Source: Candidatus Calescibacterium sp. | GTDB taxonomy: Bacteria > Calescibacteriota > Calescibacteriia > Calescibacteriales > Calescibacteriaceae | DNA: 33,761 nt | Direction of reading: 5' to 3' | Assembly (NCBI GenBank): GCA_032249135.1 | Contig: JAVVGL010000021.1 | Span: forward strand, 1-33,761 | Part shown: in pieces, positions 29,243 to 33,761 of the stretch | Layout of the letters: every line of letters starts with the position of its first letter | Numbering within the stretch: position 1 is the first letter of the stretch | Program-made: the position numbers and the translations under genes | The notes under the pieces: model-generated | The model's input: the letters and a program-made list of their open reading frames with translations, nothing else | What the model was told of the DNA's origin: nothing | Databases searched by the model: none

Positions 29243-29317
29243 AGGGGAAAAAAGAAAAGAAAAAATAAATTTCAAAAAGTGAAAAATTTGCGGAAAAATA
29301 AAATTTTCTTTGAAAAT

Positions 29318-30085
29318 ATGAGGAGGAATATAATTGTTCAGAAGTTCGGTGGAACATCTGTGGCAAATATTGAAAGGATGCGCAGGGCTTGCTACCACAT
29401 TGAAAGAGAATACAGGAAGGGAAATATGGTCGTTGTCGTAGTCTCAGCTATGGCAGGAGAAACAGATAGACTTATTAATCTGGCTAAATCTATATGTGAG
29501 TTCCCCCCGGAAGATGAGCTTGATGTACTTCTATCAACGGGTGAAACCACATCAGTTGCTCTCCTATCAATGATATTGAGAAATATCGGAATAAAAGCAA
29601 AATCTTATCTTGGATTTCAGGTAAGAATAATAACAGATGATAATTTCTCAAACGCAAGAATAATAGAGATTGAAACCGATAAACTTTTGCGGGATTTATC
29701 AAGAGGAATCGTGCCAGTTGTGGCAGGATTTCAAGGTGTAACTCGGGATGGCAGAATAACAACTTTGGGCAGAGGAGGATCAGATACAACCGCTGTCGCT
29801 CTTGCTGCATCTCTCAAGGCAAAAGTTTGTGAAATATACACAGATGTTCCCGGCGTTTTTACTACCGATCCCAATATAGAGCCAAGGGCAAAAAAAATTG
29901 ATTTTGTATCATATGAGGAGATGATGGAACTCGCTTCCTTGGGTGCAAAGGTTCTACAAATAAGAAGTGTTGAAATAGGAGCAAGATTTAATGTCCCAAT
30001 TCATGTGAGAAGTACATTTTCAGATGAACCCGGAACAATAGTGGCAGAAAGCAGAAAATACTTAAAAAAAATTCTCTCTTATTGA
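29318..30085 (+). CDS. lysC: Aspartate kinase, catalytic domain only (no ACT domains)
   Basis: VQKFGGTSV, VVVSAM, TTLGRGGSDTTA, IYTDVPGVFTTDP, GAKVL. Stops just after GT at the end of the kinase domain. Likely start ATG 29318. Confidence 0.92.
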   Translation: MRRNIIVQKFGGTSVANIERMRRACYHIEREYRKGNMVVVVVSAMAGETDRLINLAKSICEFPPEDELDVLLSTGETTSVALLSMILRNIGIKAKSYLGFQVRIITDDNFSNARIIEIETDKLLRDLSRGIVPVVAGFQGVTRDGRITTLGRGGSDTTAVALAASLKAKVCEIYTDVPGVFTTDPNIEPRAKKIDFVSYEEMMELASLGAKVLQIRSVEIGARFNVPIHVRSTFSDEPGTIVAESRKYLKKILSY

Positions 30086-30139
30086 GTTTTTCTTTATTTT
30101 TTCTGCAAGTTTAAAATTAAAAAAAGGAGGTATTGATTT

Positions 30140-32164
30140 ATGTCAAATCAAGAAGCAACAATTTTAGGGGAACTTTTACCTTATGAGGAAAAAATAGGTG
30201 AAGCTGGAGATTTTACTTTTGTTGATGTAAAAGAATATATTGAAGCTCACAAGAAAACATTAGATAATTATGAAAAGTTCTGGGAAGAAATTGCTTTGGA
30301 GTTAGATTGGTTCAAAAAACCTCAAAAAGTTTTAGAAAGCGGAGAAAAACCATATATTTATAAGTGGTTTTCTGGGGGTTTGATCAATATATCATATCTT
30401 GCTTTGGATAAACATGTAAAGAGTATCAGGAAAAATAAAATTGCTTACATATGGGAAGGAGAACCAGTTGATAAAGATGGGAATCCAAAAGAGATAAGAA
30501 AATTAACATACTATGATCTTTGGAGAGAAGTAAATAGAGCTGCCTATATTCTAAAAAGTAAATTCGGTCTGAAAAAAGGAGATAAGATAGGAATATACTT
30601 GCCTATGATCCCAGAGCTTCCTATATTTATGTTGGCTGCTGCTCGGATAGGAGTAATTTTTACCGTTGTTTTTGCAGGATTTACCGCTGAAAACCTTGCT
30701 ACAAGACTTAACGATATAAAAGCTACATTACTCATAACTGCTGATGGATTTTACAGAAGAGGAAAAATAATCAGGCTAAAAGATATTGCTGATAAGGCTC
30801 TTACTCTATCTCCATCTGTGAAAAATGTAATAGTTGTAAGAAGACTTGGACTTGAAGACTTGAACATGGTTCAAGGTAGGGATTATTTTTTTGATGAACT
30901 TTCAAAGAATGTGAATCCTGGTGTATATGTTGAACCGGAAAAACTTGAAAGTAATGAAACTCTGTATGTTCTCTATACATCTGGAACGACAGGAAAACCG
31001 AAAGGGATAATGCACGATCACGGTGGATATTCTGTTCTCCTTCACGCTACGATGAAATGGGTTTTTGATATAAAAGATGAAGATATACATTTTTGTACGG
31101 CTGATATAGGTTGGGTTACAGGACATAGCTACATAGTTTTTGGGCCGTTAATTGAAGGAGCAACTTCTATTATGTATGAAGGTGCACCAGATTATCCTCA
31201 TCCTGATAGAATATGGTCAATAGTTGAAAGATATGGAGCTACAATCCTTTACACATCTCCTACGCTCGTGAGAATGCTTATGAAATTTGGGGAAGAATGG
31301 GTGAAAAAACATGACCGATCTACTTTGAGAATTATACATTCTGTTGGAGAACCTATAAATCCGGCTGCGTGGAGATGGCTTTATGAGATTGTCGGAGAGA
31401 GGAGATGTCCTGTTGGTTCGACTTGGTGGATGACAGAAACGGGAGGAATAATGATAAGTCATACGCCGGGATTTAAGTTGGTTCATTTGAAACCCGGAAC
31501 TAATGCTTTGCCTTTGCCCGGTATAGATGTTGATGTGGTGGATGAGAAAGGAAATTCTATGGAACCTGGTAAAAAAGGATTTTTAGTTATAAGAAAACCT
31601 TGGCCTGGGATGCCATCTTGGCCCGATGGTATATGGGAAGATTATCAAAGGTATGTTCAGGTTTATTGGGATAAGATCAAAGGGCTATTTTTTACGGGAG
31701 ACTGGGCTATTCGTGATCAAGATGGATATATATGGGTCCTGGGTAGGGCAGATGAGGTTTTAAAAGTTGCAGGGCACAGAATAGGAACTTATGAACTTGA
31801 ATCAACTTTGGTATCTCATAAAGCAGTTGCAGAGTCAGCAGTCGTTGGGTATCCAGATGAGATAAAAGGTGAGGTTCCTGTTGCTTTTGTTAGTTTGAAA
31901 GCTGGATTTTCTCCTTCTGCGGAACTTGAGGAGGAGTTAAAAGGCTGGATAAGGCGGGAGTTTGGACCAATAGCTGTTCCATCTCAGATTTTCTTTGTTT
32001 CTCGTTTGCCGAAGACAAGGAGCGGTAAGATAATGAGAAGGCTTTTGCGAGCGGTATTAGAAAACAAACCCTTGGGGGACATAACTACATTAGAAGATGA
32101 AGCCGCTGTGGAGGAGATAAAAGAAGCTTATGAGCATATTTCAAAAGAAATAAAGCGCACCTGA
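30140..32164 (+). CDS. acs: AMP-forming acetyl-CoA synthetase
   Basis: YTSGTTGKPKG, ADIGWVTGHSY, SVGEPINP, TWWMTETGG, PKTRSGKIMRR; AAGGAGG RBS. Confidence 0.96.
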   Translation: MSNQEATILGELLPYEEKIGEAGDFTFVDVKEYIEAHKKTLDNYEKFWEEIALELDWFKKPQKVLESGEKPYIYKWFSGGLINISYLALDKHVKSIRKNKIAYIWEGEPVDKDGNPKEIRKLTYYDLWREVNRAAYILKSKFGLKKGDKIGIYLPMIPELPIFMLAAARIGVIFTVVFAGFTAENLATRLNDIKATLLITADGFYRRGKIIRLKDIADKALTLSPSVKNVIVVRRLGLEDLNMVQGRDYFFDELSKNVNPGVYVEPEKLESNETLYVLYTSGTTGKPKGIMHDHGGYSVLLHATMKWVFDIKDEDIHFCTADIGWVTGHSYIVFGPLIEGATSIMYEGAPDYPHPDRIWSIVERYGATILYTSPTLVRMLMKFGEEWVKKHDRSTLRIIHSVGEPINPAAWRWLYEIVGERRCPVGSTWWMTETGGIMISHTPGFKLVHLKPGTNALPLPGIDVDVVDEKGNSMEPGKKGFLVIRKPWPGMPSWPDGIWEDYQRYVQVYWDKIKGLFFTGDWAIRDQDGYIWVLGRADEVLKVAGHRIGTYELESTLVSHKAVAESAVVGYPDEIKGEVPVAFVSLKAGFSPSAELEEELKGWIRREFGPIAVPSQIFFVSRLPKTRSGKIMRRLLRAVLENKPLGDITTLEDEAAVEEIKEAYEHISKEIKRT

Positions 32165-32287
32165 AAATTTATTTTATGGCAATGCCTTGTCGCAATCATC
32201 TAAAATTATAATTTCTTCCCTAAATTCAAAAATTTTGCAAAATTCCGTTTTAAGCTAAATTCAATTATTACAATTTGTTTAATTTAT

Positions 32288-33761
32288 ATGTTCATAACTA
32301 CAAGCTTTAAACTCGTTGTAAGTAAAGATGAGAAAGAACAAATTCTCAAACTTATGAGGAATTTCTCTTCTGCTGTAAGATTCTCTTACAAAAGACTCCT
32401 TGAGGGTTTCACCACTTTGCAAACTTACACAATAACAAGACAGAAATTCCCAGAACTCAATTCTCATTATGTGAATTGCGCAGTTGAGAAAGCAAGAGAA
32501 ATTTTTCAAAGTTGCAAAGCAAGAGGACAGAATCCAAAAAAGCTCATATTTGGTGGTAGAACCTTATTTGAAAAGCTCAAAAAGAATCATCTTCAAGGAA
32601 AAAGATTAAAGGAACTAAAAAGAAAATGGAAAGAAAAGAGGCAGGGAACTCTGATAAGCATAGGCGCAAAGCACATAACTCACAAAGGTAACCTTAATTT
32701 AAGATTTATCCCTGCTGAAAAAGGTAAAAACAATCTTCTGTTAAGAATAGCTTTGAAGAACAGGAAATTTATATTAGCAAAGGTAAAGAGAGATTTGAGC
32801 GGAAAATCAGATAAATGGGCTTTATTCTTGGCAAAAATCTTATCTGGGGAGCAATTCCCTTACACCGTTGAGCTAAAATTAAAAGATAGTCAAATCTATG
32901 GATTTGTCAGGTTCTCATTAGATGTTCCTCCACAAACAATTACAAAATCAAAAGGAGTTATAGGGATAGATGTGAATGCAAGACCTTTTCATCTTGCTCT
33001 TGCAGAGGTTTCTCCCGATGGAAATTTACAAAGCTATAAATCAATTTATCTTTCCCATCTTTTGAAATGCAAAAGCAGAAACAGAAAAGAGTATGAGGAG
33101 TGGTTGATAGCTCATGAGGTTATAAAATTTGCGAAAGAGAAAGGAAAAGCTATTGCAATTGAGGATATAAAAAATCTTCCAAAAGGAAAAAGAGGAGATG
33201 GTAAAGCAAAGATCAGAAAAATCTTGCAATTTTTCTCTTATAGGAGGATACTGAAAAAGATAGAGAGTTTAGCAAATCAGGAGGGTATAGAAATAGTAAA
33301 GGTAAATCCAGCATTTACATCTTTAATAGGTATGATGAAATATTGTCCGCAGTATTTTATAGATAAAGATGTGGCAGGAGCGTATGTTATAGGTAGGAAA
33401 GCATTAGGGTTTCAAGAGAAAATTCCAGAGAACTACAAAAAGCTTCTAAAAAGCCAGATTTACATTCAATATGCACTATGGAGATTAGGGAAAATGGAGG
33501 AGGAATTGAAAAATAAGTTGAATCAAGAGAAAAACAAATACAAGGTAAATGGAATAAAGAGAGATTTGAGGAGGTTAAAGAGGGAGAGGAAATTTTTGGA
33601 GAGATTTTTGGTTGAAACCAATAGAAAAGAAAGCTCTCAGAGTGAGCCAGAGACCCAAAAGCAGGGGAACCTGAGGAAGGAACCTGTGAGGGGTCCGGAA
33701 AGCGGGCAAAAACTCTGGCGAGTTCTGAGGGTAGCCTTCGCTATACCTCTCCTTGGGAGGT
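32288..33761 (+). CDS. tnpB: IS200/IS605-family TnpB-related RuvC nuclease (3'-partial, at least 491 codons), not in the ORF track
   Basis: Hand translation from ATG 32288 is open to the window end: MFITTSFKL...LMRNFSSAVRFSYKRL...IFGGR...KGNLNLR...GVIGIDVN (D228)...IAIED (E292)...VNPAFTS...DKDVAGAYVIGR (D361). Confidence 0.9.
   Translation, partial: MFITTSFKLVVSKDEKEQILKLMRNFSSAVRFSYKRLLEGFTTLQTYTITRQKFPELNSHYVNCAVEKAREIFQSCKARGQNPKKLIFGGRTLFEKLKKNHLQGKRLKELKRKWKEKRQGTLISIGAKHITHKGNLNLRFIPAEKGKNNLLLRIALKNRKFILAKVKRDLSGKSDKWALFLAKILSGEQFPYTVELKLKDSQIYGFVRFSLDVPPQTITKSKGVIGIDVNARPFHLALAEVSPDGNLQSYKSIYLSHLLKCKSRNRKEYEEWLIAHEVIKFAKEKGKAIAIEDIKNLPKGKRGDGKAKIRKILQFFSYRRILKKIESLANQEGIEIVKVNPAFTSLIGMMKYCPQYFIDKDVAGAYVIGRKALGFQEKIPENYKKLLKSQIYIQYALWRLGKMEEELKNKLNQEKNKYKVNGIKRDLRRLKRERKFLERFLVETNRKESSQSEPETQKQGNLRKEPVRGPESGQKLWRVLRVAFAIPLLGR
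33633..33761 (+). ncRNA. Structured RNA overlapping the tnpB 3' end (candidate omega/reRNA scaffold, partial)
   Basis: 33633-33652 pairs with 33713-33732 (18 bp with a tandem GA internal loop), enclosing two GNRA-capped hairpins. Two further hairpins follow. Confidence 0.65.

Follow-up and report, generated by a model that had tools for sequence, protein, structure and literature searches.

The window analysed here is one entire contig of 33,761 nt (JAVVGL010000021.1) from Candidatus Calescibacterium sp. (assembly GCA_032249135.1). Its right end carries most of a mobile element with an open reading frame (ORF) for a TnpB-family protein, and the 3′ part of this ORF coincides with a structured RNA that is cut by the contig end. 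We find that this RNA, of ~250 nt in full, is conserved, belongs to the sense strand of the gene and reaches the last base of the element; it is probably a guide scaffold of the omega or right-end RNA (reRNA) type. Coordinates are collected in Table 1.

Table 1. Features of the tnpB element and its RNA inside the window
Feature	Positions	Strand	Basis or remark
Target-site duplication, left copy, 10 bp TTTATGGCAA	32173..32182		right copy after the right end of the element, on contig C14, reverse strand
Left terminal inverted repeat GCCTTGTCGCAAT	32184..32196	+	inverse ATTGCGACAAAGC closes the element 121 nt past the window
TnpB-family ORF, RuvC motifs, no zinc finger	32288..33760	+	491 codons in the window, still open
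Structured RNA, window part: domain 1 and start of domain 2	33633..33761	+	whole RNA ~250 nt, ends at right end of element
P1, 5′ strand; partner 33722-33732	33633..33643	+	11 pairs, compensatory changes
P1b, 5′ strand; partner 33713-33719 across GA/GA internal loop	33646..33652	+	covariation alignment
P2a, 5′ strand CCC; partner GGG 33690-33692	33654..33656	+	covariation, 19 homologues
P2b, 5′ strand GCAGG; partner CCUGU 33683-33687	33661..33665	+	covariation, 19 homologues
Apical loop with conserved GGAAGGAA, closed by P2b	33666..33682	+	conserved alignment columns 46-53
P3, variable hairpin GUCCG-GAAAG-CGGGC	33693..33707	+	by eye and minimum-energy fold
P1b and P1, 3′ strands; also coding for peptide W(R/Q)VL(R/K)VA	33713..33732	+	covariation and protein alignment
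Long domain-2 helix, 5′ strand; partner GGGAGGGGGUAGCG..GGUUA beyond the window	33734..33752	+	covariation alignment

The tnpB locus and its continuation

The GC content is 0.574 in positions 33633-33761, compared with 0.337 in the ORF upstream, and the jump occurs with the ORF open to the window end, as the original prediction had pointed out. The final 54 nt of the window (contig C21 of genome G000) exactly match the reverse end of contig C14 of the same genome, on which the GC-rich block extends for another 121 nt and terminates in ...ATTGCGACAAAGC. Since TTTATGGCAA is present to the left of the element and again to its right on C14, the join of the two contigs is confirmed and a target-site duplication is established. 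The element is 1.7 kb long, and the suspicion that the RNA continues beyond the window proved right: it runs ~121 nt further, to the exact end of the element, like TnpB guide RNAs. A second full copy lies on contig C4 (90.5% identity over 1,587 nt). The genome also has two 5′ pieces (C5 and C41) and three further 3′ ends (C51, C42 and C14, the last being the continuation of the window).

The sister copy has an ORF of 527 codons whose stop lies ~15-30 nt short of the right end. The protein scores 49.6 bits with TIGR01766 (cut-off 32); its score with Pfam Cas12f1-like_TNB, 19.5, is below the cut-off of 26.3. A profile of 44 sequences matched Cas12f/TnpB chains in the RuvC region (E = 3.5e-11). 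The AlphaFold model (predicted local distance difference test, pLDDT, 86; predicted template modelling score, pTM, 0.76) has the WED-REC-RuvC fold of the TnpB/Cas12 superfamily. Foldseek placed it closest to Cas12f (E ~1e-9, template modelling score 0.42-0.55), with matches to the TnpBs of ISDra2 (8e-6, 8exa) and ISFba1 (6.3e-6); the resemblance to Cas12f, Cas12k and these two TnpBs spans 410-475 columns. The RuvC D-E-D motifs of the ORF are GIDVN, AIEDI and DKDIAG; among the 59 loci whose frame is at least 480 aa long, motif I was found in 55, motif II in 57 and motif III in 55. No C4 zinc finger is present between RuvC-II and RuvC-III, where ~13 residues with a single Cys separate NPAFTS from DKD.

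Relatives of the element

Protein searches gave 1,639 matches among 8,000 scored candidates, the best 120 of which are all 87-94% identical and mostly metagenomic; in a 50%-identity protein library, 1,623 representatives matched at E ≤ 0.001. Three of the seven available genomes of the phylum, that of the window included, have matches. Scanning one genome per species gave 269 relatives, of which we analysed the best 80 loci. All of these belong to thermophiles, among them Thermocrinis, Hydrogenobacter, Sulfurihydrogenibium, Thermodesulfobacteria, Caldanaerobacter, Fervidicola and Caldicoprobacter. For covariation analysis we started with 81 sequences (78 loci and three copies from the genome of the window) and retained 40 that were <90% identical in the RNA region. 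They were aligned with MAFFT without structure input, a consensus structure was derived by RNAalifold, and 500 shuffled alignments as well as consensus structures with slid pairing partners served as controls.

A conserved RNA within the 3′ end of the gene

The consensus has 49 pairs, 31 of which show compensatory changes. Pairing is possible in 96.0% of cells, against 80.4% in the shuffles, and the covariation score of 0.523 (0.220 in shuffles) was reached by none of the 500 shuffles; sliding the partners by 1-3 columns lowered it to 0.086-0.122. Covariation analysis had been proposed as a check on this RNA, and covariation is present. The fold is also more stable than expected, both for the window part (z = −3.56) and for the full-length RNA in the sister copy (z = −6.47); in either case none of 200 shuffles was equally stable.

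The best-supported part is the outer helix, which has the form originally drawn: GCUCUCAGAGU-GA-GCCAGAG (33633-33652) pairs with CUCUGGC-GA-GUUCUGAGGGU (33713-33732), giving 11 and 7 pairs around a GA/GA loop. Across the 40 diverged homologues 98.9% of the cells of these 18 pairs can pair and 12 pairs have changed on both sides. For instance, GCUCUCAGAGU/GUUCUGAGGGU is replaced by ACCUUAACAGU/GUUGUUAAGGU in one lineage and by GUGGAAAGAGC/GUUCUUUCCAU in another. Three P1 pairs are mostly G-U (in 32, 37 and 31 of the 40 sequences); as the opposite strand would have C-A at these places, the structure is assigned to the sense strand. The conserved, structured, sense-strand RNA is real, and it lies inside an open ORF, which bears out the view that the 3′ end of this TnpB-family gene is dual-coded.

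The protein encoded by the same nucleotides has a C-terminal extension of ~150 residues. After RuvC-III the model has two long helices, a disordered segment (residues 452-474) and three short helices. The disordered segment is encoded by the stretch from the P1 5′ strand through P3, and the most variable hairpin of the RNA falls here; the short helices are encoded by the P1b/P1 3′ strands and domain 2. The peptide W(R/Q)VL(R/K)VA...RD(L/F)SPLK of the C-terminal region is conserved, with W479, D498, S500 and L502 invariant in 23 sequences, and the region is modelled as helices with pLDDT 65-92. One could therefore suppose that there is no functional RNA, that conservation stems from the protein extension alone and that the helices are incidental. 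We regard this as very improbable. The paired changes are ~90 nt apart and cannot be due to coding constraint, the most variable hairpin sits in the segment modelled as disordered, and the shuffle and slide controls already contradict the idea. Moreover, amino acids change to follow the RNA helix (peptide variants VLRVA, VVKVA, VLSIA and VAHAA). Because a change in the helix brings with it a change in residues of the otherwise conserved peptide, this stretch works for protein and RNA alike.

Architecture of the RNA

The RNA has three domains: domain 1 is a multibranch structure in which P1/P1b enclose P2a/P2b and P3, domain 2 is a long helix enclosing two hairpins and domain 3 is a hairpin. 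The expectation of an RNA more elaborate than typical was correct as to scale, ~250 nt in three domains being large for a TnpB RNA; the inner branches had been drawn mostly wrong.

These inner branches were compared in the 19 homologues that can be aligned column by column over domain 1. Two hairpins with GNRA loops, CAGG-GGAA-CCUG and GGAACCU-GUGA-GGGGUCC (the second with an A-G mismatch), can be drawn in the window, and we rejected them since they are conserved at chance level: 46.4% of cells pair (44.3% in shuffles) and the covariation score of 0.079 (0.068 in shuffles) was equalled by 78 of 500 shuffles. Helices P2a and P2b pair in 91.2% of cells, with a score of 0.404 (0.172) that no shuffle out of 500 reached. 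The other two hairpins of the original prediction, UAGC-CUUC-GCUA and ACCUCUC..GGGAGGU, are not conserved either, with 51.6% of cells pairing against 53.5% in shuffles; in the conserved fold this stretch supplies the 5′ strand of the long helix of domain 2. At the position of P3 there is a hairpin in every homologue with a different sequence each time, as judged by eye and from minimum-energy folds. In the Thermocrinis type the interior of domain 1 appears, by eye only, as two stacked helices beneath the same conserved loop.

The apical loop of domain 3 is complementary to the last 5-7 nt of the element. This complementarity is found in 41 of 44 distinct rows (52 sequences), and the pairing with the element's own terminus has a mean length of 6.5 nt, compared with 4.6 nt for termini of other end types. 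Loop and terminus are GCUUUG/CAAAGC in the type of the window, GAGGCUG/CAGCCUC in the Thermocrinis type (GAGGUUG/CAACCUC in locus L023) and CYUGGU/ACCAGG in most other relatives; loci L065 and L070 have CCAGGUCA/UGACCUGG where L073 has CCUGGUCA/UGACCAGG. The loop thus changes in step with the terminus in each end type. Judged from sequence, such a pairing is as expected for a pseudoknot immediately upstream of a guide.

A scan with Rfam release 15 (HEARO, IS605-orfB, RAGATH-18, group I introns and others), which had been suggested as a check, gave no matches at gathering score for the window and 10 related loci; no family matches the RNA. A permissive scan (E up to 10) of a full copy returned noise only (E ≥ 1.4). 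A self-splicing intron of the IStron kind or another known ribozyme would also be multibranched, GC-rich and housed in a tnpB element, yet with no gathering-score match to any Rfam model this explanation is hardly credible.

The mobile element and its DDE companions

Elements of the IS200/IS605 and IS607 families have neither inverted terminal repeats nor target duplication, according to passages of PMC13565253. The ordinary tnpB context that the original prediction took for granted does not apply here: the element of the window has inverted terminal repeats and a target-site duplication. Its lineage carries 13-bp inverted repeats, GCYTTGTCGCAAT, and a 10-bp duplication; in the Thermocrinis type the inverted repeats are of 17 bp, GAGGCTGTTCTAAAAAT. 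The element therefore falls outside IS200/IS605. Nor is it an IS607 element, since it carries no serine-recombinase gene (tnpA) and its last bases are AAAGC; L087 and similar relatives do show the features of that family.

Most relatives end in ...ACCAGG, often with an IS607 transposase gene upstream; the upstream ORF of L087 scores 230 bits with the IS607 transposase model (cut-off 110). The right ends of these IS607-type relatives finish in GG, and GGAGG is found to the left of the element. No inverted repeats were found at a plausible left end among 32 such loci, which gave 4 stray matches at a wrong distance. The tnpB family is of IS607 ancestry. In several IS607-type loci (L053, L054, L060, L063, L052, L062, L092, L098 and others) the Shine-Dalgarno-like GGAGG lies just to the left of the element and an ATG 5-15 nt to its right, so these elements seem to be placed between the ribosome-binding site and the start codon of a host gene.

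Of 22 full elements, 9 are flanked by exact duplications, which measure 9-12 bp; among 17 short elements 6 have an exact duplication. Some of the others have near-matches (L091) or swapped flanks. The swapped flanks were observed in L027 and L067 of the same genome, where the duplication half at one copy finds its match at the other, which indicates inversion or recombination between copies. As for the C4 copy (L009), a contig of metatranscriptome run X9 presents an empty site with CATA between the flanks, and the occupied site has one A and the element.

In each inverted-repeat lineage there is a separate element of ~0.93-1.05 kb with the same repeats that encodes a DDE transposase. In the genome of the window this is an insertion sequence of ~1.05 kb outside the window (C24:2291-3341), bounded by the terminal repeats of the tnpB element and flanked by a 10-bp duplication, AAAATGAATT. 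Its ORF encodes a DDE_Tnp_1/DUF772 transposase (DDE_Tnp_1 at 2.2e-7) that looks N-terminally broken. Fragments of this type of insertion sequence were also seen on contigs C17 and C20. Its counterpart L102 in genome G007 encodes a transposase with a best match to an IS5-family model (68 bits, below cut-off); the two transposases are 24% identical (E = 4e-6). L102 itself (G007:C50:35362-36295) is inserted inside the left end of the IS607-type tnpB element L065 with a 10-bp duplication GCGAAACAGT. In the two Aquificota genomes searched for copies of the repeats there were 67 and 55 matches, against 2 and 1 for a reversed control.

Miniature elements occur as well. Two (L107 and L117) retain just the last 87 nt of the element and have perfect 10-bp duplications; three (L106, L116 and L118) keep ~238 nt of the RNA region and have lost the gene. 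Another, on the minus strand at L007:500-790 beside the full copy in genome G002, is a fusion of the ORF's first ~60 nt with the final ~100 nt of the element. Because the repeats are common to the DDE element and miniature elements occur, the element of the window is probably, as far as such sequence comparison tells, a solo passenger moved in trans by an IS5/IS4-like DDE transposase.

The conserved pairings might be transposition signals at the DNA level, acting as hairpins or as sites bound by the transposase. The RNA extends into the right terminal repeat. Its domain-3 loop has the sequence of the left terminus in the inverted-repeat lineages and could be a third binding site, and in the IS607-type relatives a hairpin immediately precedes the right end. 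For several reasons we find this explanation quite improbable. G-U pairs dominate several positions, domains 1 and 2 were retained despite the switch from IS607-type to DDE-type ends, and L107 and L117, with only the last 87 nt, still have perfect duplications. In IS607-type relatives, too, the loop is complementary to the terminus though no inverted copy of the terminus was found at a plausible left end.

Thermocrinis/Hydrogenobacter-type loci (L025-L093) are inserted 9-12 bp downstream of a TTGNCA-like motif, present on the left side only. The CA is present in 19 of 22 loci, and the strict form [GT][GTC]CA in 14 of 22 on the left, compared with 1 of 22 on the right. On the opposite strand the motif looks like a −35 box, TTGACA. 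As a transposon-adjacent motif (TAM) of TnpB it was rejected: by eye, it also stands beside five of five DDE-derived or miniature elements without tnpB and four of five unclassified ones. Because it adjoins elements without tnpB, a target preference of the DDE transposase is the simpler reading.

To the left of the element, positions 29279-32164 hold ORFs that, from their translations, we take to encode an aspartate-kinase-like protein and an acetyl-CoA-synthetase-like protein (AMP-binding motif YTSGTTGKPKG).

The RNA as a probable guide scaffold

An omega RNA or reRNA should be encoded in sense orientation at the 3′ end of tnpB and should end together with the element on its right side, and the RNA described here has this position and a structure supported by covariation. 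We think it probable that it is the guide scaffold of the TnpB clade encoded by the same DNA. The RNA would be excised from, or transcribed with, the tnpB message and bound by the TnpB-family protein; transcription past the right end would append flanking sequence as the guide, which in omega RNAs measures ~16-20 nt, and the complex would cut guide-matching DNA beside a short motif.

Metatranscriptomes give a weak hint that RNA of the region is expressed. Parts of the stretch are contained in 24 runs, none of which has >46% of the sampled words. We mapped four hot-spring runs, all stored as contigs, whose depth cannot rank parts of the gene and whose RNA libraries may include DNA. Summed word depth was 220-62,000 in the structured region (bins 1338-1613 of L009), compared with 0-1,770 for the remaining ORF and 8-33 for the flank, these being contig depths with unreliable strand and ends. 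Contigs cross the right end into various flanks and as contigs cannot show RNA ends; ORF stretches without contig cover carry no meaning.

Binding, processing, guide use, cleavage and any role in homing are what we infer, and to that extent the RNA could instead be a cis-acting element of the tnpB message, serving stability, transcription termination or translation control. Such an element would likewise lie wholly inside the message, with the ORF running through nearly all of it, and a GC-rich 3′ fold could protect the message at high temperature. Still, we consider a purely cis-acting role unlikely: three domains and a loop pairing that tracks the terminus far exceed the needs of stability, members of this protein family use exactly such 3′ RNAs, and miniatures L106, L116 and L118 retain ~238 nt of the RNA region without the gene.

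Several observations weigh against the guide-scaffold reading. The protein is below the cut-off of the NCBIfam model NF040570 guided_TnpB (48.5 bits against 100) and is missing the zinc finger of most TnpBs; zinc-finger loss occurs in some TnpB clades, as sections of PMC10691335 report. Its confident C-terminal helices could be inflated by RNA covariation entering the protein alignment on which the model was built. The pseudoknot is backed by about four sequence classes with few independent changes, and in minimum-energy folds of domain 3 alone part of the ‘loop’ falls in the stem. The element of the window is without an IS607 or Y1 transposase, and because of its inverted repeats and duplication the usual logic of scarless excision followed by homing is not directly applicable. 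Of the two complete copies in this genome, the one on C4 has no target duplication, and the empty-site contig differs from it by four letters.

A further reading accommodates both the guide scaffold and the DDE-type ends: an RNA-nuclease module may have been captured by a DDE insertion sequence, with the terminal pseudoknot re-tuned to the new inverted-repeat terminus, and RNA-guided homing or retention may use the target motif of the transposase as TAM. Given a re-tuned pseudoknot, the nuclease would still load guides, now starting with the 10-bp target duplication, and the TTGNCA-like motif would sit at the required TAM position in the empty site. This scenario is doubtful; if true, it would be a cut-and-paste DDE transposon with homing, a bacterial counterpart of Fanzor in eukaryotic DDE transposons.

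Relation to known systems and significance

The TnpB of ISDra2 (IS200/IS605) has several features in common with the present system: its RNA is encoded on the sense strand and extends over the 3′ part of tnpB as far as the right end of the element, and the protein fold is the same. The ISDra2 RNA overlaps the coding sequence, as stated in part of PMC11061315. Different from ISDra2, the present system has no zinc finger, a ~150-residue C-terminal extension, an RNA that is nearly wholly dual-coded, and inverted repeats with a target duplication. The ISFba1 TnpB shares with it the IS607 family and RNA pseudoknots, and the AGGAG motif of ISFba1 resembles the GGAGG to the left of our IS607-type relatives. 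According to the same part of PMC11061315, ISFba1 uses this AGGAG motif and its reRNA derives from RAGATH-18, separate from the coding sequence, whereas the RNA described here is inside the coding sequence and, with no Rfam match, is not RAGATH-18.

Inverted terminal repeats around TnpB, and solo TnpBs with ends matching transposase-carrying elements, are reported in sections of Altae-Tran et al. 2023 (PMC10691335); TnpBs with DDE transposases and solo TnpBs with matching ends also appear in passages of a 2026 review (PMC13565253). Like the six DDE-associated branches of Altae-Tran et al., the tnpB elements here share their repeats with a separate DDE element, both in the genome of the window and in a Thermocrinis genome, but the transposase lies outside the tnpB element. 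Cas12f, the best structural match, uses a large multi-stem guide RNA; the present locus lacks a CRISPR array, and the gene itself contains the RNA. Fanzor, as portrayed in parts of PMC13565253, is a TnpB homologue with a 3′ guide RNA in DDE elements that have inverted repeats and duplicate their target. The present system is bacterial and of a different protein clade, and Fanzor2 is a weak fold match (1.7e-4).

In a literature search of limited extent, this RNA was not described and TnpB was not reported in Thermocrinis. Most likely, the arrangement of the RNA is ordinary for this gene family and the RNA family itself is undescribed, but it is not a new kind of system. For a widespread clade of thermophile TnpBs without zinc finger, it adds a guide-RNA-like family that is backed by covariation and is not contained in Rfam 15. 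If the activity proposed here is true, the compact thermophilic nuclease with its defined scaffold may be of interest for genome editing. The region is also a clean example of dual coding, with ~95 codons that specify a protein segment and RNA helices at once. Finally, one RNA-nuclease module is found in two transposon contexts, IS607 and DDE-type, and its terminus pairing switches with the ends, which is natural evidence as to which features of the RNA are important.

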